Source: an uncultured Thermoplasmata archaeon | GTDB taxonomy: Archaea; Thermoplasmatota; Thermoplasmata; Halarchaeoplasmatales; Halarchaeoplasmataceae | Assembly (NCBI GenBank): GCA_964462425.1 | Contig: CAYWYD010000003.1 | Location: 5,918-69,917 of the forward strand | Length of the DNA: 64,000 bases | Direction of reading: 5' to 3' | Shown here: positions 1 to 13,931 of the stretch, in pieces | Layout of the letters: each line of letters opens with the position of its first letter | Numbering within the stretch: the stretch's first letter is position 1 | Program-made: the position numbers and the translations under genes | Notes under the pieces: generated by a model | What the model was told of the DNA's origin: nothing | Seen by the model: only the letters and a program-made list of their open reading frames with translations | Database searches by the model: none

Positions 1-105
1 GCCTGTTACGAACCGGAGATAAAGATAGACGAGAGGACCCTAGAACTCCTTCATGACGTGGAGGAGGATCTAGCTTATGCACTAAAAGATATCGGGAGGG
101 CATGA
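1..105 (+). CDS. 3' end of an upstream gene (partial, product unknown)
   Basis: Frame 1 reads ...ACYEPEIKIDERTLELLHDVEEDLAYALKDIGRA followed by TGA at 103-105. GC is host-like. No start codon lies inside the window. Confidence 0.3.
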   Translation, partial: ACYEPEIKIDERTLELLHDVEEDLAYALKDIGRA

Positions 106-184
106 GTTTTCCGTTTCTAAAGGTTTTTTGGCATTCCCTCTAAAGAAAATCTACCTATGGCGATCGTTCATGAATATCTATTTT

Positions 185-475
185 TCAGACAGGTTCGACA
201 GTAGTCTCCAATTCCTTTAAATCCACTTCAATTTTGTCAGCAGTTCTTTTATATTTAAAACAGGTATCATCTTCAACATATTTTCTTTTAACTATATCCA
301 CTGACCTCAGCTTTTCTACCGCTCGATATATTGTTTCTCTACGCGTTTTAGGGTGTTGATTTTGATATTTCTCTAATATATCATTGATCGACATCATCTC
401 ATCATCTAAAATATTCAGTATATTTAATCTGGTCTCAGAATCTAGAACTGACGTGATATCAATTATATCCTCCAT
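185..475 (-). CDS. Small winged-helix (wHTH) transcriptional regulator, ArsR/MarR/TrmB-like
   Basis: 96-aa ORF containing ...MSINDILEKYQNQHPKTRRETIYRAVEKLRSVDIVKRK..., which reads as a recognition helix plus wing. It is AT-rich like the adjacent R-M genes. It sits divergent to the 592..1617 ORF, 116 bp away. Confidence 0.5.
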   Translation of the reverse strand: MEDIIDITSVLDSETRLNILNILDDEMMSINDILEKYQNQHPKTRRETIYRAVEKLRSVDIVKRKYVEDDTCFKYKRTADKIEVDLKELETTVEPV

Positions 476-591
476 AGGTTAACACTTCCATAATATCTTT
501 TGAACCGGACAGATACATATCTTCGTAATATATTGTAAAGCTACGTAACAAATACATAAATAAATTTTTTCCTAATCTTTCTGAGATAATT

Positions 592-1617
592 ATGGGAAAA
601 CATGAAAGAAAAGATGTCCAGATCGCAGAGAATATTGTAAAAGATCTAGTCAATGGAAACAAAATAGACTCTCACCAAAAACAACATAAATTGTATGAAT
701 TATCTACCGACCTAGCTGAAAGGATAAAACGTGATTTTCCCGATCTCTCCTATTGTGAAACGGTGGGTAACACATATGGAAACCTCGGCGACCTTAAATT
801 AGATATCCAAGGACGAGATTGTATATATATAGAGCTGAAATTTTTGAGCGGAGGAAGGGGTACGAGAGCAAATATTGGCCAAAATACACTAACCGATTTC
901 GATCTATTTGAATCAAAGGCCAAATCTTGGCAAGAATTTCGAAAGGAAGAAAATCATATTACATGGGTAAAGAGGGAATTGAACAAATTTGAGGATTACC
1001 CAGAAAATATAAAGAATACTAGTGGTAAAAAAACTATAATTTATAAAAAGGCCGGATATCTAAAGGATGTGATAGGGACTAGACGTGGTAAAGAAACCAA
1101 AAAAGTGGCTAAAAATGTATTAAACGATCCAAAATCTTCCCAAAAGAAGAAAAAAGCTGCGGAGATTATAATCAACATCGTAGATAAGGCCGAGAAAGAA
1201 AAAAAGGATTATCTCAACTATCTATCTGAACTGGATCAAAATCATGAAAATATCAAAAAATTCCTCTTCTTGATTTTATCTGGAAGACATACCACTAAAA
1301 AGCTAGATGAAAAATGGGATCTAGATCTATCAACCATCCTAGATAATCTAAAAAACGATTATTACGTTTATTATGGCTATAAGAATAGAAAGAACAAAAC
1401 GGTAGAAGTGGAAGATACCTCAGAGAAGTTGAAGGAACTACTTGATAAAAGAATATTCATTTCATTTAAAAAAGGCCAGACAAACGTTCTTATATCTTTC
1501 AAAAATGACTCCCAAAAGGAGATCCCAATATTACGAGTGGTTTTTCATTGGAAAAATAAATTCCAGGGTATACAGACCCCCTGTCTTAATGTATTCGATA
1601 GCACTTATTTAAAATGA
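592..1617 (+). CDS. Candidate type II restriction endonuclease (PD-(D/E)XK fold), partner of the adjacent methyltransferase
   Basis: Lysine-rich 341-aa ORF. The PD-(D/E)XK signature is present as GDLKLD...(13 aa)...IELK. It is convergent with, and 15 bp from, the N6-adenine MTase. Local GC is about 33%. Confidence 0.45.
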   Translation: MGKHERKDVQIAENIVKDLVNGNKIDSHQKQHKLYELSTDLAERIKRDFPDLSYCETVGNTYGNLGDLKLDIQGRDCIYIELKFLSGGRGTRANIGQNTLTDFDLFESKAKSWQEFRKEENHITWVKRELNKFEDYPENIKNTSGKKTIIYKKAGYLKDVIGTRRGKETKKVAKNVLNDPKSSQKKKKAAEIIINIVDKAEKEKKDYLNYLSELDQNHENIKKFLFLILSGRHTTKKLDEKWDLDLSTILDNLKNDYYVYYGYKNRKNKTVEVEDTSEKLKELLDKRIFISFKKGQTNVLISFKNDSQKEIPILRVVFHWKNKFQGIQTPCLNVFDSTYLK

Positions 1618-1632
1618 ATTTCCACTTGTATT

Positions 1633-2895
1633 TCAAGCCTCTAAATCAAATGGAAACAATCGTTCTAATTCGGTTTTAGAAAGTTGGGTGTTCCCAGTGA
1701 TGCTCTGCACCACTTCGATTTTATCATTCGAATTCAGTTGATCTAAAATATCTTTTAGATCTAGATTTTGCGTGTCTATAGAGCCGTCTTCAAAAAATCT
1801 CGCTTGTTTGCCCTTTGGTGGAAAGATAACATTTACGTGGTTCTCTCCGATAAATTTCATCCCCTCCGGTATTAAAGCGGCTCTAACTTTTCCTGATCCA
1901 GGTTTACCCACTACTCTATTGACCACTATAGCGGGACCCACGCTAGGGTCATCTATATCGACATACTGCGGTTTTTCATGGTTTTCAAGCTCAAGGCCGT
2001 CTTCAGTTATGTTGTGAGACCAAATTATCGGGATATTACCCTCCTTTTGATCAGTTAATTTATCTTTATTTTGATTCCAAACAAGTCTTCCAGTTTTGAC
2101 AGTATACCCCATCTCTCTAAGAGATATTTTATCCTCAAACTTCTTTTCTAGATACTCAGCGTCCTCACTGAATATCATTATCTCATTTTTTCTAAAAACG
2201 TAATCACCATGGTTTTTTCCCTTCTTCAATATCAATAACATAGTAGATTGCTGAGCATTGTGGAACAATTCAGCATCCTTGAGTATGTGTAAATATTCTA
2301 TATTACAATTATTTATTATATATTCCCGGAGTTTGGAAAAATACGCTCCATTATTCATCGAGGGAGGGTTTACAAAGGCCAGGTATCCTCCTTCCTTTAG
2401 TAATTTTATCCCCTGATATATGAATAATCCATATATATTCAATCTCCCGTTTATCACTTCTTCATACTTCTTCTTTATTCCTTCATCCGGGCTAAATTCG
2501 TAATAAGGTGGATTTCCTATTATCAAATCGAATTTATCTCGAACCTCTCTTTTTAGAGTATCTGTTTTTTTTATCTCGGCTTCAGGCACAACTTCTCGAG
2601 ATATATTTACCATCTTTTCGTCTATATCCCACCCGTAGAGCTCCGGGGAGTTAAATCGGTCCTTAACGGACAGGAGAAATTCGCCCGTACCGCATCCAGG
2701 ATCTAGAACTTTCAGACCGTTCTTATTCAAAAACTCATCTGGCAATTGATCGATAAGTTTTCTTCGTATTTTTTTAGGTGTGAAATATTGTCCGAGGTTC
2801 TTCCTTCGGTCTAAATCTTCCTTCTCGATATATTCTAATGTTTCGGACCTAAATTGATCCAAATCCTTTTTAGATTTTTCAGTACGCATTGCCAC
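1633..2895 (-). CDS. Site-specific DNA N6-adenine methyltransferase (gamma class, TaqI/Eco57I-like)
   Basis: AdoMet motif I is VLDPGCGTGEFL and catalytic motif IV is IIGNPPYY, in the gamma-class order. A target-recognition domain is expected in the C-terminal half. The start is probably GTG at 2895 or ATG at 2889. Confidence 0.8.
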   Translation of the reverse strand: MAMRTEKSKKDLDQFRSETLEYIEKEDLDRRKNLGQYFTPKKIRRKLIDQLPDEFLNKNGLKVLDPGCGTGEFLLSVKDRFNSPELYGWDIDEKMVNISREVVPEAEIKKTDTLKREVRDKFDLIIGNPPYYEFSPDEGIKKKYEEVINGRLNIYGLFIYQGIKLLKEGGYLAFVNPPSMNNGAYFSKLREYIINNCNIEYLHILKDAELFHNAQQSTMLLILKKGKNHGDYVFRKNEIMIFSEDAEYLEKKFEDKISLREMGYTVKTGRLVWNQNKDKLTDQKEGNIPIIWSHNITEDGLELENHEKPQYVDIDDPSVGPAIVVNRVVGKPGSGKVRAALIPEGMKFIGENHVNVIFPPKGKQARFFEDGSIDTQNLDLKDILDQLNSNDKIEVVQSITGNTQLSKTELERLFPFDLEA

Positions 2896-3344
2896 CCACC
2901 TTTATTATACTTATTTTATTTAAAGGGCTTTGACCTTCAGCGCCGTTCGTTTTACTCTTTACCGCCTCTGAAATAGTTACTTTAAAACTTTTGACCAAAT
3001 CCCACTGATCTCCGGCGAAAATGAGTTGAACTTTTTTTGTGTTTGCCATGTATATCAAAGCAATCTTGATAGATTAATTACATAGATTTATAGCTTTTGT
3101 AAAAAGGTATCGATCTTAGTACCCATCGATTGCTCAGGAACATCCATAGCCAAGGATCTTTAATCTTCCTGTAGATGTCTGTATGTACTTCTAGACCATA
3201 AGATAATGCTTCAAGTGAAAGTTGGGCTATAACAGATGAACGGTGATTTTCTCCTCATAACTTTAGAATAGCACCAAGAAAAGAGAGCTTTTTCAGCACA
3301 AATTATTTAGAGATTTAAGAGAGATATATACAGGGAAGATAAAA

Positions 3345-3608
3345 ATGGCGACCGGTAGTAGGGTCTCAAGAATATTCTTTATACTTTTAGGTTCAAGCTT
3401 ACTTGTCAGTCTCCTCATCTATGTGATACCAGGATCCATCTTCATAGCGGATTATCTGAAGTTCATAACGCTTATCCTCTTTGCTGGGACCGGAGTGTTG
3501 TCGATCTTCTTCGTGACGGAACAGTTGATACCCGGGTCCGGGACCATGATGTCCGACAAAGAAAAGGCGGATTCTAGACCAGCGGATGAAAAGATTAAGG
3601 TGGGCTAG
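3345..3608 (+). CDS. Small membrane protein (2 predicted TM helices). The same frame continues past TAG 3606-3608 to 3776, encoding a C4 zinc ribbon.
   Basis: The hydrophobic stretches are FFILLGSSLLVSLLIYVIPGSIF and ITLILFAGTGVLSIFFV. The continuation after the in-frame TAG reads ...KKCDECGTELEYKEDYQSYYCPNCRT and contains no ATG, GTG or TTG. Confidence 0.3.
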   Translation: MATGSRVSRIFFILLGSSLLVSLLIYVIPGSIFIADYLKFITLILFAGTGVLSIFFVTEQLIPGSGTMMSDKEKADSRPADEKIKVG

Positions 3609-3787
3609 AAAACTAAAGCGGGAACACGAAAAACTCCGATTTCTACACAGAAGAGCGAAGGTCTCTTTTCTAAATTCAACCCGTTCGCCGGGAAAAAGAA
3701 GTGCGACGAATGCGGAACGGAGTTGGAGTACAAGGAAGATTATCAAAGTTATTACTGCCCCAACTGTCGGACTTAAAAGGAGAATAG

Positions 3788-4015
3788 TCCTCGATTATCA
3801 CGTCGAAAAAGGGTACAGATATAGAGGTACACAAAGCGATAGGATACACGATTACCGACGAGAAGATAGTAGGCAGCATCCACATAGCTCTTGGTGAGAA
3901 CAAGATGTTCGGCGGTGAGAACGACTCGTTTCTACACTGGGACCTGGTCATGCTCGATCCGTCCTTCGAAGTTAACGGGGAAAAGGTCATAGACACCGGT
4001 CAACACCCGGTCTGA
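3788..4015 (+). pseudogene. C-terminal remnant of an M29-family aminopeptidase (aminopeptidase T/AmpS/PepS-like). The N-terminal ~300 codons are absent.
   Basis: Frame 2 reads, directly after a TAG, SSIITSKKGTDIEVHKAIGYTITDEKIVGSIHIALGENKMFGGENDSFLHWDLVMLDPSFEVNGEKVIDTGQHPV*. This matches the conserved M29 C-terminus (...FDEKIGGTVHLALG...SAxHWDxV...VDG...). No start codon is present. Upstream lies the AT-rich R-M island. Confidence 0.45.
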
Positions 4016-4069
4016 GGTCTAGGCCCAACACAAAGTTTTTACCTCCGCCGCTCTCTATATTCAAATACC

Positions 4070-4801
4070 ATGGATCGAGAAGTGCTCAAAGACTATATCC
4101 GCGAGAGGGTGGATTTTTCACAGACCGACCAGAAAAAAGGCGTTCCCATGCCTCCGGTCCAGAAAGAACCTCCCGAAGAAGCGGAACTGGTTGATCTTCC
4201 GGACCCGGAAAGTCTTGACATAAACATCGGACTCAGCGAAGCTATCTCGAACAGGGAGTCGAGGCGCTCTTTTACGAACGATCCTCTGGAACTAACGGAA
4301 CTGTCATTTCTTCTGGGGGCGACCCAAGGCGTGCGTGAGACGACCGACTCAGGACGCGTTTACAGGGTCGTACCTTCGGCGGGAAATCGTCACGCTCTAG
4401 AGACCTACACAGCCGCGTTCGATGTTAATGAGCTAAACGAAGGGATCTACAGGTATCTACCTTTAGACCATAAACTGGTAAAAGTGATAGAATATGAAGA
4501 TATGGAGGACAAAGTCACACGAGCCGCGAGGGGACAATCCTTCGTCGGGAACTGCGCCGCGACCTTCATCTGGACCACTGTACCGTACAGGATGGAGTGG
4601 CGGTACGGAGAAGCCTCCTACAAGGTCATCGCTATAGACGCGGGTCACGTCTGCCAGAACTTGTACATCGCCGCGGAAGCTATAGAGGCGGGAACTTGTG
4701 CTATAGCTGCCTACGATCAGGACCTGATGGATTCCCTGCTCGAAGTCGACGGAAAAGACGAATTCACCATCTATCTGGCGCCGGTGGGTAAGATACCCTG
4801 A
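4070..4801 (+). CDS. Nitroreductase-family protein (SagB-type dehydrogenase domain)
   Basis: RESRRSF...PSAGNRHALETY...GIYRY...VIAIDAGHVCQNLYIAAEAIEAGTCAI is typical of the NADH oxidase/nitroreductase fold of SagB/ThcOx-like proteins. Confidence 0.6.
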   Translation: MDREVLKDYIRERVDFSQTDQKKGVPMPPVQKEPPEEAELVDLPDPESLDINIGLSEAISNRESRRSFTNDPLELTELSFLLGATQGVRETTDSGRVYRVVPSAGNRHALETYTAAFDVNELNEGIYRYLPLDHKLVKVIEYEDMEDKVTRAARGQSFVGNCAATFIWTTVPYRMEWRYGEASYKVIAIDAGHVCQNLYIAAEAIEAGTCAIAAYDQDLMDSLLEVDGKDEFTIYLAPVGKIP

Positions 4802-4961
4802 TCCTCACCAGGGAAAGAGTTAATTATCTCGAATCACATAACTTTTAATGGGAGTGGTCAGAGGATAGATAGGTCGTACCTTACACGTTAAAGTGTAGAA
4901 CGGCCTCCTTGTGAATCTTTCGGGGCATCTATTTCTATATTCTGGCCTTCTGGTGAGATAT

Positions 4962-5804
4962 ATGGAGTTGAAAGGTAAAACATGTATGGTCACCGGTGCT
5001 AATTCCGGGATCGGTAATCGCACTGCTGAAAGGTTCGCGGACAGAGGGGCTCAAGTGGTGATGGTCTGTAGAAACGATGAACGGTGCGAGAAGGCCAGAA
5101 AGGAGATCGTCCAAAGAACGCAAAACGGGGATGTACAACTCCTACTCTGCGATCTATCGTCGATGCGCTCCGTTAGACTGGCTGTCAAAACGTTCAAAGA
5201 GAAGTTCAGCAGTTTACACGTGCTCGTGAACAACGCAGGCATGATCTCTTCAGAGAGGAAGATCACGGACGAAGATTACGAAAAAACGTTCGCGACCAAC
5301 TATCTCGGCCACTTCCTCCTCACCTATCTTTTGATCCCCGCCATGAAAGACGCTAAAGCCGAGATAATCAACGTTACCTCCGCAGCTCATAAAAACGCGA
5401 ACCTCGATTTTAACGACCTTCAGCTAAAGGAGCCTTCCAACTTCGGCAGTTGGAGGGCCTATGCCAACTCAAAATTGGCACAGGTGATGTTCACTTATAC
5501 CCTGTCCAAAAAACTGAAGAGATATCAGATATCGGTGAACAGCTTTCATCCTGGGGTCGTGAACTCTCAATTCGGGAACGGGACTCTTTTGACAAAGATC
5601 TTCTACACGTTGTTTTTCTTTTTGATGAGAGACCCCGACGATTCCGCGGAAGATATCGTTAACATCATCACTGATCCTAAATTTGAAGGCGTGACCGGGA
5701 AGTATTTCTCCAAGAGAAAGATAAAAGAGCCCTCTAAAGACGCTCACGATTTAAAGGTGCGTAGGAAGCTTTGGAAAGAGAGTAAGAGGTTGGTAGGAGT
5801 GTAG
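4962..5804 (+). CDS. Short-chain dehydrogenase/reductase (SDR, retinol-dehydrogenase-like)
   Basis: The Rossmann motif is GKTCMVTGANSGIG, NNAG is present, and the catalytic motif is YANSK (YxxxK). The start was moved to the in-frame ATG at 4962 (MELKGK...). The track ORF begins at 4911. Confidence 0.8.
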   Translation: MELKGKTCMVTGANSGIGNRTAERFADRGAQVVMVCRNDERCEKARKEIVQRTQNGDVQLLLCDLSSMRSVRLAVKTFKEKFSSLHVLVNNAGMISSERKITDEDYEKTFATNYLGHFLLTYLLIPAMKDAKAEIINVTSAAHKNANLDFNDLQLKEPSNFGSWRAYANSKLAQVMFTYTLSKKLKRYQISVNSFHPGVVNSQFGNGTLLTKIFYTLFFFLMRDPDDSAEDIVNIITDPKFEGVTGKYFSKRKIKEPSKDAHDLKVRRKLWKESKRLVGV

Positions 5805-5823
5805 AAGGCTGTCACCTTCAACT

Positions 5824-6927: not shown

Positions 6928-7032
6928 GTTCTCATCGAGGGTATGGTCGAGGATTCCTTTTATATTTTATTGAATCCGTCCGCGAGCGATTCTCTTATCA
7001 TCTTAAAAAGAAGAAAAAACAAAGATCCGTAC

Positions 7033-7365
7033 TCACTGCTGTTCGTCCTCTTCGGTGCCTTCACCCATTTCTTCGTCCTCGGTAGTTGAGTCCTCTTGAA
7101 GAGCGTCCTCTTCTTCCGCCGCTCTTCTTCTCCTCCAAAATACGATCGCTAGAAGTGATAATAGGATCACTATACCGATCCCGATCAACCACCAGTAGTC
7201 TACATGCCCACTTTCACCTCGAGTGTCATCCTTTTCATCTCCTTCGTCGAGCACACTACAGACCACTCCGTCGGAGGCATCACCGCTGGCGATTTCAACC
7301 GTATACTCGCCGGTTTCTACCCCGGAAGTGTTCCATTTGAACTCTCCCTGATGAGTGTTGATCAC
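7033..7365 (-). CDS. Small surface-anchored protein: short Ig/FN3-like ectodomain fragment, TM helix, poly-Arg stop-transfer, acidic tail
   Basis: GEYTVEIASGDASDG resembles the DGEYTVEVKAV repeats of the 2079-aa protein. It is followed by WWLIGIGIVILLSLLAIVFWRRRR and then an E/D-rich tail. Confidence 0.35.
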   Translation of the reverse strand: MINTHQGEFKWNTSGVETGEYTVEIASGDASDGVVCSVLDEGDEKDDTRGESGHVDYWWLIGIGIVILLSLLAIVFWRRRRAAEEEDALQEDSTTEDEEMGEGTEEDEQQ

Positions 7366-7784
7366 TCCAAGGGTGAGACTTTCATATACCGTCTCTTCGG
7401 ATCTCTACCATAATCGGTGCACGGCCATGTTGTCCCAAATGTCTAGATATTATTGTCGTTCAGATCATAAAAATCACCGCTGTAGGAAGTTATATTCTCC
7501 CAGTTGACGCCCTCTTAAGGTGAGCTGAAAAATCGTTCCGATGTATTCGATGAGGTGGACGGTATCTTTTCAGCACGGGATAGAGGAAGGTCCCGATCTC
7601 GAAGGCGATTCTAGTGTGAAGGGCGAAGAACGTTCCCCGCTATCCCGGATACCGCCGCCCACCCATTTTTCATCTTAGATTTTCAAGTTACCGGATATAC
7701 GATAATACTTAAGTAAAGAAGACCGTTATCGAACCGCATGGAGGACGGACCCGGCTAGTCCGAGTGCTTTGAATAAAAAGGGAA

Positions 7785-9578
7785 GTGGAATATATGAGAT
7801 GGCGAAAACTGCTGACGATGGTTCTAGCGGTTTCATTACTAGTTAATCTCTCCATCGTATTTGCTGTTCCTGCAGGTGGAGTGGACGGGGAAGAAACGAG
7901 AACCGACTCTAGGCCTGAAATAAAAGATCTGGGAGATACGCCGTGGCCGAGTTTTGGAAAAGATGAAAAGAATACGGGCTTGAGTTCTCACGATACAACT
8001 CGACTAGACGGCGCGGTAAAGTGGGCCTCCGAGACTCAAGGGAAGATCAAAAGTTCTCCCACCATCGGACCGGACGGGTCGATCTACTTCGGCTCGAACG
8101 ACAATAGGTTGTACGCTCTGAGACCCGACGGTATCCAGAAATGGAATTTTTGCACCTCGGGAGAAGTCCTCTCCTCACCAGCTATCGGAGCGAACGGCAA
8201 CATATATTTCGGTTCTACGGATGAAAATTTCTACTCTCTCACACCAGACGGAAGCTTGAGATGGAAGTTCGATACCGGCGAGTACAGCGTTCAAGGAGGT
8301 ATGATCGAATCTTCGCCCGTGATCGGACCGGACGGAACGATATATTTCGGGTGCTGGAACGGTAGATTGTATGCTCTTCACCAGAACGGCACGGCGAAGT
8401 GGAGTTTCAGAACCGGCGGACCGATCAAATCATCTTCTCCAGCTGTAGATTCCGACGGTACCGTCTATATCGGTTCTCACTCCGGCGGCCTTTATGCTGT
8501 AAATCCCAACGGGACTGAAAGATGGAGCTACTCCACGGGACAGGGAGTACATTCCTCACCGACCATCGGCCAGGACGGAACCATCTACGTGGGTTCAGAG
8601 GACGACAATTTTTACGCTGTGAATCCCGAAGGAACGGTCGAATGGAACTATACGACCGGGGATAACGTCCGGGCTTCGGCCGCTATAGGGCCGGACGGGA
8701 CGATCTACATAGGCTCTTTCGACTCGAATATGTACGCGTTCACAAAATCCGGTTCGTTGAAATGGTCCTTCGAATCCGATCATGCGATATATACCAATCC
8801 AGCTATCGGCGGCGAAGGGACCATCTACTTCGCTTCAGCCATGGGCACTATATATTCGCTCTATCCGAACGGGACGGAGAAGTGGTCTATAAAGGCTGAG
8901 GATTCCATCGGTTCTTCACCTTCTATAGGGTCTAACGGCAGGGTCTATATCGGTTCGTCCGACTCAAACCTGTACTCTATCGGAGCCGGCAAATCGGAAG
9001 AAAACCCTCCGGGCGAGCCTCAGAACCTCGAAGCCGCGGGAGGGGAAGACTACATCAAGCTCACATGGGACCCACCGGCCGACAAGGGCAGTTCTTTGAT
9101 AAAGGAATACAGGATCTATAGAGGAGCGAACCAAGCTGATATTATTCAATATGATGTCGTAGATGGGGCGAAAACTTCCTACAACGACACCGGTGTCCGA
9201 GAAGGGTCGACTTACCGCTACAAGGTCAGCGCGGTCAACGATGCAGGCGAAGGAGAATTGACCTCAGCGGTCGAGGAAACGGTCTCCACTAGTGATGACG
9301 GCGAACCCCCCGACGATGATGTTAGCGAAGAAGGATTTATGTCATCCTATTGGTGGTTGATACTGCTTCTTATAATAGGGATCATCGCCGCGGCCATATT
9401 CCTACTGTCCCGTAAGAGAGAAACCCCGGAAGAATCTCGAGGGACCTCTAGCGTAAGATCCGAATCGACCGAAAATCAGCGTAGACGGACTTCTAGAGGG
9501 ACGACCGCGTCTAGAGAGGAAACTTCAGAGGGTGTATACAGTGATGAAGGTGAGATACAACCTGAAGATGAGATATAG
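7785..9578 (+). CDS. Secreted/surface PQQ-type beta-propeller repeat protein with C-terminal FN3 domain, TM anchor and Ser/Arg-rich tail
   Basis: An N-terminal signal peptide is followed by about 8 repeats of the form IGxDGxIYxGSxDxxLYAxxPxGxxKW. Next comes an FN3 domain (PGEPQNLEAAGGEDYIKLTWDPP...TYRYKVSAVNDAGEGE), then the TM segment SYWWLILLLIIGIIAAAIFLL, then RKRETPEE... Confidence 0.7.
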   Translation: MEYMRWRKLLTMVLAVSLLVNLSIVFAVPAGGVDGEETRTDSRPEIKDLGDTPWPSFGKDEKNTGLSSHDTTRLDGAVKWASETQGKIKSSPTIGPDGSIYFGSNDNRLYALRPDGIQKWNFCTSGEVLSSPAIGANGNIYFGSTDENFYSLTPDGSLRWKFDTGEYSVQGGMIESSPVIGPDGTIYFGCWNGRLYALHQNGTAKWSFRTGGPIKSSSPAVDSDGTVYIGSHSGGLYAVNPNGTERWSYSTGQGVHSSPTIGQDGTIYVGSEDDNFYAVNPEGTVEWNYTTGDNVRASAAIGPDGTIYIGSFDSNMYAFTKSGSLKWSFESDHAIYTNPAIGGEGTIYFASAMGTIYSLYPNGTEKWSIKAEDSIGSSPSIGSNGRVYIGSSDSNLYSIGAGKSEENPPGEPQNLEAAGGEDYIKLTWDPPADKGSSLIKEYRIYRGANQADIIQYDVVDGAKTSYNDTGVREGSTYRYKVSAVNDAGEGELTSAVEETVSTSDDGEPPDDDVSEEGFMSSYWWLILLLIIGIIAAAIFLLSRKRETPEESRGTSSVRSESTENQRRRTSRGTTASREETSEGVYSDEGEIQPEDEI

Positions 9579-9668
9579 AGAAACAAGACAGCAAAAAAGA
9601 GTATCGCGGAGTGCAGAAAACAACTTAAAAGACAGGGTAGATGCTGAAGGTCAGAGAAGTGTATTAAG

Positions 9669-12127: not shown

Positions 12128-12245
12128 GATATCTTCTATCGACTTTTATAATCTTATCGTTTCACCCCGATAGTCGAAGAAGCATCTCTTTTTCTCGAAA
12201 AACTTTTATGATAAAGACACATATGTCTAATACGGAGGTCTGAAC

Positions 12246-12815
12246 ATGGAAGGTTTGAAAGGATTAGAAGGAAAGAAAGTTCTAACTAAAGATGGTAAGT
12301 TGACGGGAAAGGTGATCGATTTCACCTACCAGGGTGATAGAATAGAAAAGATCGTCCTCAAGATGAATAAAGACATTTTGGAGGACATCGGGGAAGAGAA
12401 GCCGATGCTGTCCTCGGTAAAAAGAGCACTAGAAATAGAGAAAATTAAGGCGGTCTCGGATAACGTGATATTACACAAGGAATTAGATGACCTACATCTA
12501 GATTTCGACGAGATCTCCGAGGATAACCTCCTATCAGCCATCAGAGGGCTACGGATAAATGACAGTGAAGGAAGAGACGTCGGTAAGGTGACCGATATAA
12601 TGGTAGATATCGAGGATTGGGGTACGCCGTCACTCCTGGTAAAGCTGAACAAAGATGTACTCGAACCTTTGGACATAGAAGGGTCTATGCTATCCAAAAC
12701 CGAACTGGAGATCTCTATGAGACACGTGGACGAGATCAGTGACTGGATAATGTTGGACAAATCGGCGGATCAGCTGGGAGATATAATCAAAAAGGAGCCG
12801 GTGAAGAAGCCGTAG
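12246..12815 (+). CDS. Tandem PRC-barrel domain protein
   Basis: There are two copies of a pattern like GKKVLTKDGKLTGKVIDF and GRDVGKVTDIMVDI. Confidence 0.55.
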   Translation: MEGLKGLEGKKVLTKDGKLTGKVIDFTYQGDRIEKIVLKMNKDILEDIGEEKPMLSSVKRALEIEKIKAVSDNVILHKELDDLHLDFDEISEDNLLSAIRGLRINDSEGRDVGKVTDIMVDIEDWGTPSLLVKLNKDVLEPLDIEGSMLSKTELEISMRHVDEISDWIMLDKSADQLGDIIKKEPVKKP

Positions 12816-12822
12816 GAACTTC

Positions 12823-13329
12823 TCAGACCAGTTTAAGACCCACCCAGTAGAATACCGCGAGGGTGATTATCCCTCTGAACGCGCCGGCGATGACGTTGAT
12901 TATGGTGAACCATTCTCTATCCATCCCCTCACCTTTTTCCTCCGGATTGAGCAGAGAAAAGAGATAAAGAGATATCGAGTCGATCATCAGAGGTGTACTC
13001 AGAACCACTAGAAGACCGTAATAGCCGTACTTCTTTACGAACCATTCACAATACTCTATGATCTTTTTGATGAACCTGTTCTTCGTGGAAGTGTAACTCT
13101 TTAGTTTTTTCCTAGCGGAAGTACTGATCTCGAAGACGATGAAACCTCCGATACCTTTCCCTAGCGCGAGTATCGAGATCAGAATGACCGGATGGATATG
13201 GTAATTGAAAAGCCCTATCTCCACCGGTATCGGGAGTATTACAGCGGCTAAGATAGCATAGATAAGGAAAAGGATCGAATAGGCCAATGGATTAGTGGCT
13301 AAACCCGTCAATATTCCGATCAGGTCCAT
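12823..13329 (-). CDS. Small membrane protein, DedA/VTT(YqaA)-like
   Basis: 168 aa with about 4 TM segments. The loop reads ARKKLKSYTSTKNRF... and the ends are hydrophobic. Confidence 0.35.
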   Translation of the reverse strand: MDLIGILTGLATNPLAYSILFLIYAILAAVILPIPVEIGLFNYHIHPVILISILALGKGIGGFIVFEISTSARKKLKSYTSTKNRFIKKIIEYCEWFVKKYGYYGLLVVLSTPLMIDSISLYLFSLLNPEEKGEGMDREWFTIINVIAGAFRGIITLAVFYWVGLKLV

Positions 13330-13427
13330 CAGTGGAAAAAATTAGAGAGAGGTTAAAAGAATTTTTGTCTCGGTCCTATGATCATCACACCTAACACTTA
13401 TAAACATTAGAACCTATTTAGATAGAT

Positions 13428-13931
13428 ATGTCACCTTCAAGAGACGTGGTTATCGAAAGCATCGACGAACTAGGATCTCTTCTAGCGAGGACATACTGGA
13501 TAGAGGAGGAGTTCGAGGGAGTAACGCAGTGGGAAGCTTATACCTCGGTAGAAGACAAATATAAGGAACTTCTTTTCAGACTATCTCACGAATCCGAAGG
13601 GCATAAAGAATTGCTGAAAAAATTGATCTCGAACCTCGAAGGTTTGGATATGGAAACGATCAAGCAAAATTCTCAAGCTCGCGAGGCTGTCAAATTCAAA
13701 AAATACTCTCAAGATATAGAGATACTGCAAGAAGTATATGAGAACGATGAGTTGGCTCTAGACCTCTATTCGAAGATCCATTCGAAGACCTCGCGAGAAT
13801 TTATCGAGAAAATGTGGGAAGGGGACGATCCCGATGAATTTTTCCAAATACTTTCCGAGATCATCGAAGAAGAGAAAGAACATATCGCGTCAGTAGGTGA
13901 ATTTGCCCAAAAGCTTGGCCGAGTCAAGTGA
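13428..13931 (+). CDS. Ferritin-like/rubrerythrin-like di-iron four-helix-bundle protein
   Basis: Two E...ExxH pairs are present: WIEEEFEG...SHESEGHKELL and VYENDELALDLY...EEEKEHIASV. Confidence 0.4.
   Translation: MSPSRDVVIESIDELGSLLARTYWIEEEFEGVTQWEAYTSVEDKYKELLFRLSHESEGHKELLKKLISNLEGLDMETIKQNSQAREAVKFKKYSQDIEILQEVYENDELALDLYSKIHSKTSREFIEKMWEGDDPDEFFQILSEIIEEEKEHIASVGEFAQKLGRVK

Follow-up and report, generated by a model that had tools for sequence, protein, structure and literature searches.

A start-less 3' remnant of an M29 aminopeptidase gene at the border of a predicted restriction-modification island in an uncultured Thermoplasmata archaeon

Introduction

Aminopeptidases of family M29 share a signature of six residues, EEHYHD (PMC4661694), and include AmpT (PDB 2AYI), PepS from S. 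pneumoniae (4ICQ), AmpS from S. aureus (1ZJC) and Lmo1603 from Listeria. The bacterial enzymes comprise 408-418 amino acids, whereas the proteins of an archaeal M29 clade consist of about 365 residues. Here, we describe a sequence related to this archaeal clade that resides in a 64-kb window, i.e. the whole stretch of DNA analyzed (contig CAYWYD010000003.1 of assembly GCA_964462425.1), from an uncultured Thermoplasmata archaeon. Measured against the enzymes named above, it corresponds to the C-terminal 67 residues of the matching archaeal proteins. Because residues 1 to ~298 are lost, a start codon is missing and constraint is relaxed, it has to be regarded as a gene remnant and not as an enzyme; neither of the two glutamate ligands of M29 enzymes is left.

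The remnant borders a pair of genes for a predicted restriction-modification (R-M) system. It is well documented that R-M loci frequently differ from their counterparts in related genomes through substitution or insertion/deletion while the flanks are conserved, with 116 and 158 such cases among 760 locus pairs (Furuta, Abe & Kobayashi, 2010; PMC2853133). The locus described here resembles these cases in combining an R-M pair of deviant GC content, collinear flanks, a non-homologous middle part and the destruction of a resident gene.

Results

Reading frame and M29 identity of the remnant

Frame 2 of the plus strand is open from position 3788 to a TGA at 4013-4015 and translates into SSIITSKKGTDIEVHKAIGYTITDEKIVGSIHIALGENKMFGGENDSFLHWDLVMLDPSFEVNGEKVIDTGQHPV, which amounts to 75 open codons ending in ...GQHPV. 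The original prediction, made from the DNA letters, quoted this translation correctly but stopped three residues short of its end, omitting HPV. It also stated that the frame opens directly after a stop codon and has no start, and indeed a TAG lies immediately upstream (3785-3787) and no ATG, GTG or TTG is present before an ATG at 3905, from which the conventional ORF listed for this region encodes 36 amino acids. The M29 gene relic proper occupies 3812-4015 on the plus strand and consists of residues 299-365 plus the stop codon, as delimited by tblastn, blastn and alignments. The first eight codons of the open frame (3788-3811, SSIITSKK) are junction DNA without M29 homology in the alignments, and homology at the nucleotide level is unambiguous from about position 3824 onward. 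The loss of the 5' codons had thus been recognized correctly, with the amendments that about 298 and not roughly 330 codons are missing and that codons 1-8 of the frame are not derived from M29.

The closest relative of the window at this locus is found in Thermoplasmatota MAG NA-30cm_bin.11 (L006). When its intact 365-aa M29 protein was used as a tblastn query, residues 299-365 aligned with positions 3812-4012 at 80.6% identity (E 2e-29), so that the proposed M29 match is borne out by 81% identity with an intact orthologue. The same search detected no further M29 pieces across the 64-kb window; upstream M29 sequence is absent in every frame, and an in-frame N-terminal region has therefore not been overlooked. 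On its own, the 75-aa fragment matches profile positions 333-392 of 406 in PF02073 with an E value of 0.0015 and 17.9 bits, which falls short of the gathering score of 27 bits, as is expected for 67 residues. It has no match in NCBIfam, and a phmmer search against the PDB returned chance matches only (alginate-binding proteins, E ~0.5). The family assignment is therefore carried by the orthologues of the fragment. Among 5.8 billion proteins, a single relative was found, P0001 (99 aa, 75% identity, E 2e-25). A profile made from the fragment and P0001 matches 2326 proteins in a representative library, usually at residues ~271-363 of proteins of ~365 aa. A scan of GTDB genomes yielded 16 loci, nearly all of them from haloalkaliphilic or halophilic Thermoplasmata MAGs, and at 15 of these the matching frame is a complete gene for a protein of ~365 aa. 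Intact orthologues score 165 (L006) and 168 bits (L020) on PF02073 and match the structures of AmpT (2AYI), PepS (4ICQ) and AmpS (1ZJC) with E values of 1e-11 to 1e-16. The segment 3812-4015 is homologous to genuine M29 genes and orthologous to residues 299-365 of the intact 365-aa genes, that is, to the extreme C-terminus of an AmpT/PepS-type enzyme, just as originally proposed. An antisense ORF at 3676-3996 represents a shadow of the M29 reading frame and recurs opposite the intact gene in L006.

Alignment of the profile to PDB entries places the histidine codon of an HIALG motif (3881-3883, plus strand) at the position of AmpT H345 and the codons for H-W-D (3935-3943, plus strand) at those of AmpT H376-V377-D378. 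The histidine motif and the HWD metal ligand named in the original prediction hence coincide with AmpT H345 and H376/D378. Three of the six EEHYHD residues are retained in the stub, namely the His and the His-x-Asp, while both catalytic glutamates (L006 GEVF; E295 of IGELG) fall in the deleted part. Given the missing residues, aminopeptidase activity of the stub is not expected. Judged from an HMM alignment, the intact members of the archaeal clade (L006 1850-2947 and its orthologues) lack the four-residue loop that bears Tyr352 in Thermus AmpT, the tyrosine of EEHYHD. A Phe or Tyr located two residues on (GENxxF/YGG) may serve as its substitute.

Comparison with related loci

L006 and the window are collinear to the left and to the right of the island. 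Its gene order starts with a gene for a PAS/HTH sensor protein of 522 aa (L006 231-1799), followed by the intact M29 gene (1850-2947), a gene for a SagB-type dehydrogenase (3002-3733) and an SDR gene. In blastn comparisons, window positions 1-90 correspond to L006 1689-1778 (94% identity) and positions 3823-5819, which cover the M29 3' end, the SagB-type dehydrogenase and the SDR, to L006 2755-4727 (81%), with collinearity extending further downstream. The breakpoints lie at 90-92 on the left and at about 3812-3824 on the right; the two sequences stem from related species (~81-85% nucleotide identity) and not from strains of one species, and the breakpoints are accordingly resolved to ~10-30 nt. 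Between the matching flanks, L006 contains ~970 bp, made up of the last sensor codons, the intergenic region and the first ~298 codons of M29, compared to ~3.7 kb in the window. The 5' 900 nt of the M29 gene are situated in this island-free relative exactly where the window carries the island, in agreement with the original reading that the 5' part of the gene was destroyed by insertion of an R-M island or an associated deletion.

On the left side, the 3' end of the sensor gene is present at 1-105 on the plus strand and matches residues 487-517 of the 522-aa L006 protein in tblastn. Homology stops at about position 90, and the protein ends in ...AYALKDIGRA* in the window versus ...AYALKDLPPSEE* in L006. 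The left junction thus lies inside the last sensor codons and gives rise to a new tail of four residues, IGRA*, in place of LPPSEE*. On the right side, the gene for the SagB-type nitroreductase/dehydrogenase is intact (4070-4801, plus strand; Pfam Nitroreductase E 2e-22, TIGR03605 111 bits, and synteny). An exact-sequence look-up found no record identical to the encoded protein. The sequence AAAGTTTTTA (4033-4042), located 5' of the SagB gene and 3' of the stop codon of the stub, is identical in L006 and may represent the SagB gene's own BRE/TATA element.

The arrangement seen in L006 is not restricted to this relative. An M29 gene immediately 5' of the corresponding SagB gene and transcribed in the same direction occurs in L006, L020, L022, L025, L086 and L090, where it is intact, and in L021, whose contig ends within it. 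Synteny with island-free relatives, i.e. collinearity of L006 on both sides and M29 upstream of SagB in seven relatives, therefore fits the original prediction. None of the island proteins was found by tblastn in L006 or in the six further relatives L020, L021, L022, L025, L086 and L090. Relaxed tblastn searches revealed no M29 remnants beside SagB in L023, L024, L026, L028 and L029, in which the synteny differs. The window and L006 also differ outside the island. Positions 6975-9666 (~2.7 kb) correspond to only 672 nt in L006 and hold a gene for a membrane-anchored protein of 597 aa with beta-propeller repeats (7785-9578) as well as an acidic ORF of 110 aa (7033-7365), and three blocks within 12193-13931 are rearranged in order relative to L006 7758-9662.

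A second 5' truncation of the M29 orthologue was noted in Ca. Saliniplasma (L001 1991-2371, equivalent to L004 2374-2754, and also in L002 and L003). This stub keeps only residues 241-365, is preceded by an unrelated gene for a membrane protein of 114 aa and is reported by gene callers as the 99-aa protein P0001 mentioned above. Relatives with the same TtuA...Ham1-RIO-RNasePH synteny carry an intact M29 gene. A single ancient truncation shared by both lineages was considered and rejected, as the small membrane proteins encoded 5' of the two stubs are unrelated (BLASTP E = 3). The unrelated upstream membrane proteins and the differing synteny lead us to regard the two truncations as independent.

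The foreign segment and its restriction-modification pair

The foreign segment of ~3.7 kb (91-3811) stands out by its composition and is without homology to L006 or other relative loci. Its GC content is 30-40% up to about position 3200 and 41-46% at 3200-3800, compared to 45-53% in the flanking native DNA. The first gene (185-475, minus strand) encodes a winged-helix regulator of 96 aa (Pfam FUR-type wHTH, E 4e-6; PADLOC Csa3 wHTH, E 2e-6). It is followed by the genes for a predicted Type II restriction endonuclease of 341 aa with a PD-(D/E)xK fold (592-1617, plus strand) and, in opposite orientation, a gamma-class N6-adenine DNA methyltransferase of 420 aa (1633-2895, minus strand).

The methyltransferase contains the motifs VLDPGCGTGEF and IIGNPPYY, and with them both the N6-adenine catalytic motif (NPPY) and the AdoMet motif (FxGxG-type) by which methyltransferases of Type II R-M systems are recognized. 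It scores 79.4 bits with Pfam Eco57I, 76.5 bits with N6_Mtase and E 3e-51 with PADLOC MTase_II, and its matches in the PDB are M.TaqI, M.BseCI and CamA (E 1e-12 to 1e-15). The adjacent 341-aa protein provides the corresponding endonuclease candidate with a predicted nuclease fold and conserved catalytic residues, E81-x-K83 being invariant in 25 homologues. No Pfam, NCBIfam or PADLOC model matches this protein, nor is there detectable similarity to characterized enzymes. Its fold is predicted to be nearest to those of the Type IIP enzymes R.HinP1I and R.MspI, from which it differs in being ~100 residues longer and in lacking detectable sequence similarity. HinP1I and MspI are partnered with m5C and not with m6A methyltransferases. 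The family occurs in Chloroflexi, other bacteria, Lokiarchaeota and Halorubrum. Homologues with 52-54% identity are encoded convergently with a gene for an N6_Mtase/Eco57I protein of ~400 aa in three unrelated bacterial neighborhoods, while the Halorubrum homologues (37-38% identity) are solitary at a conserved locus (L092). At the level of prediction, it is justified to speak of an R-M island.

Upstream of the methyltransferase gene and overlapping its start by 17 nt, the ORF list contains an ORF of 59 aa (2879-3058, minus strand) that has no family match in Pfam or PADLOC; its product could be a small protein that regulates the R-M genes. The remainder of the segment harbors an orphan membrane ORF on the plus strand (3345-3608) for 87 aa with two transmembrane helices. 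It ends with a TAG at 3606-3608, after which 55 more codons in the same frame encode a CxxC...CxxC zinc ribbon without a start codon (3609-3777), as is evident from the translations and from weak zinc-ribbon matches in Pfam. The TAG is also present in L099, an independent assembly, and the sole database homologue of 3345-3777 is from the same strain. Probably, a nonsense mutation has divided a single gene at 3345-3777, although read-through of the TAG is possible. A general recoding of TAG, by pyrrolysine or read-through, that would rescue interrupted frames was discarded, as 7 of the 37 long ORFs found in the window terminate with TAG. For the M29 frame it does not come into question either, because the sequence 5' of the TAG at 3785 is not M29-like.

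In contrast to R-M loci with mobility signatures of the type described previously (PMC2853133), the island shows no such marks. No pair of repeats bracketing it was detected, whether as inverted or direct terminal repeats or as a long target duplication, no tRNA or Rfam element was found at its ends, and no ORF within it matched an integrase or transposase family in Pfam.

Sequence decay in the remnant

Substitutions between the window and L006 were polarised with seven outgroups. In the stub, 12 nonsynonymous and 5 synonymous changes fall on the window branch, compared to 2 and 6, respectively, for the same segment on the L006 branch. In the adjacent SagB gene, the window branch carries 14 nonsynonymous and 25 synonymous changes, a proportion that differs from that of the stub (Fisher p = 0.02). 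Exclusion of the four junction-proximal codons leaves 8 nonsynonymous and 4 synonymous changes in the stub (p = 0.095), the test as a whole covering only 67 codons and hence small numbers. Window-specific nucleotide states in the stub are distributed 5:5:9 over the three codon positions, compared to a strong bias towards third positions in intact genes, and the replacements N301D, P302I, S338F and L364P are found solely in the stub at columns that are otherwise conserved. These patterns point to decay of the stub at a roughly neutral ratio and over appreciable time, which would mean that the truncation is not very recent. We infer that the stub yields neither a transcript nor a protein.

Discussion

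Taken together, the stub is very probably a non-functional 3' remnant of an M29 gene whose 5' part has been replaced by horizontally acquired, low-GC DNA bearing an R-M system. What is observed directly is the homology, the position of both breakpoints, the lack of the 5' part, the gene content of the island and the relaxed constraint on the stub, and the following course of events can be fitted to these observations. The ancestral gene order would have been sensor gene, M29 and SagB, as in L006 today. Some 970 bp, from the last 5-7 sensor codons through the promoter region of M29 to about codon 298 of that gene, would have been lost, and ~3.7 kb with the R-M pair, the wHTH gene and the orphan small ORFs would have been gained in their place by horizontal transfer. 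The start-less stub, devoid of the catalytic glutamates, would then have gathered amino-acid-changing substitutions near the neutral ratio. Insertion and deletion probably constitute one single event of illegitimate recombination that was caused by the R-M unit or connected with it. The island has neither target duplication and terminal repeats nor integrase and transposase that would indicate how it entered, and the step in GC content at about position 3200 hints at a composite origin and hence possibly at more than one event.

In this respect it has to be considered that the region may have been shaped in at least two separate steps, the M29 5' region having been deleted, or disrupted by the DNA with the transmembrane and zinc-ribbon frames, before the R-M genes arrived as mere bystanders. 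We regard this as unlikely, albeit well worth discussing. It would account for the heterogeneous GC content of the insert (30-40% at 91-3200 versus 41-46% at 3200-3800) and for the fact that the conserved mobile cassette found elsewhere consists of the endonuclease and methyltransferase genes only, without wHTH, transmembrane or zinc-ribbon genes. Ca. Saliniplasma (L001-L004) likewise demonstrates that M29 can be truncated without involvement of any R-M gene, and the ~17 lineage-specific substitutions gathered by the stub would also be in line with an early loss. Yet the two clean breakpoints relative to L006 make a single replacement the most parsimonious solution, and an intermediate genotype is absent among 90 related loci. 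An artificial join in a metagenome-assembled genome, by which a low-GC R-M fragment of another organism was fused to a Thermoplasmata contig inside M29, is extremely improbable despite the sharp GC shifts near the junctions, because one and the same relative, L006, matches the window collinearly on either side of the island, an arrangement that no single chimeric join can yield. Furthermore, pseudogene-like substitutions would not be expected in an intact gene cut by misassembly, and the two junctions are seen again in other deposited or independently built assemblies, L091 being 100% identical over window positions 1-1704 and L099 showing 2 mismatches over 2832-4654. These two assemblies may share sequencing reads with the window and are thus no proof against an artefact at the level of reads.

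The question also arises whether the stub has been kept because it is useful. It might encode a small protein, such as the 36-aa product read from the ATG at 3905 or one initiated at a non-canonical codon, or might serve the downstream SagB gene as its 5' region or as a cis element. The open frame of 75 codons, the adjacent and co-directional arrangement of M29 and SagB in seven relatives and the persistence of 3' stubs of the same gene in two independent lineages (the window and L001-L004) could be read in this way. However, the conserved part has no canonical start, the two glutamate ligands have been lost together with ~80% of the fold, the ratio of nonsynonymous to synonymous changes on the window branch is near neutral with conserved columns altered, and the conserved BRE/TATA-like sequence for SagB is situated 3' of the stub's stop codon, all of which renders such a role very unlikely. 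It is still harder to believe that the stub was retained in both truncated lineages, and not by chance, as a small His/His-Asp metal-binding peptide or a required upstream element. Replacement of the M29 5' part by R-M-bearing DNA therefore remains our preferred explanation.

For annotation, it follows that the stub should be recorded as a pseudogene and not as a small protein, as has been done for its counterpart in Ca. Saliniplasma. The island brings to light an uncharacterized family of predicted endonucleases partnered with a TaqI-like methyltransferase. The scar itself is of an ordinary, well-understood kind and does not challenge current understanding. In the reading favored here, it adds a breakpoint-resolved case in which an R-M cassette erased most of a housekeeping peptidase gene in an uncultured haloalkaliphilic member of the Thermoplasmata, and the loss illustrates that this clade can do without M29.
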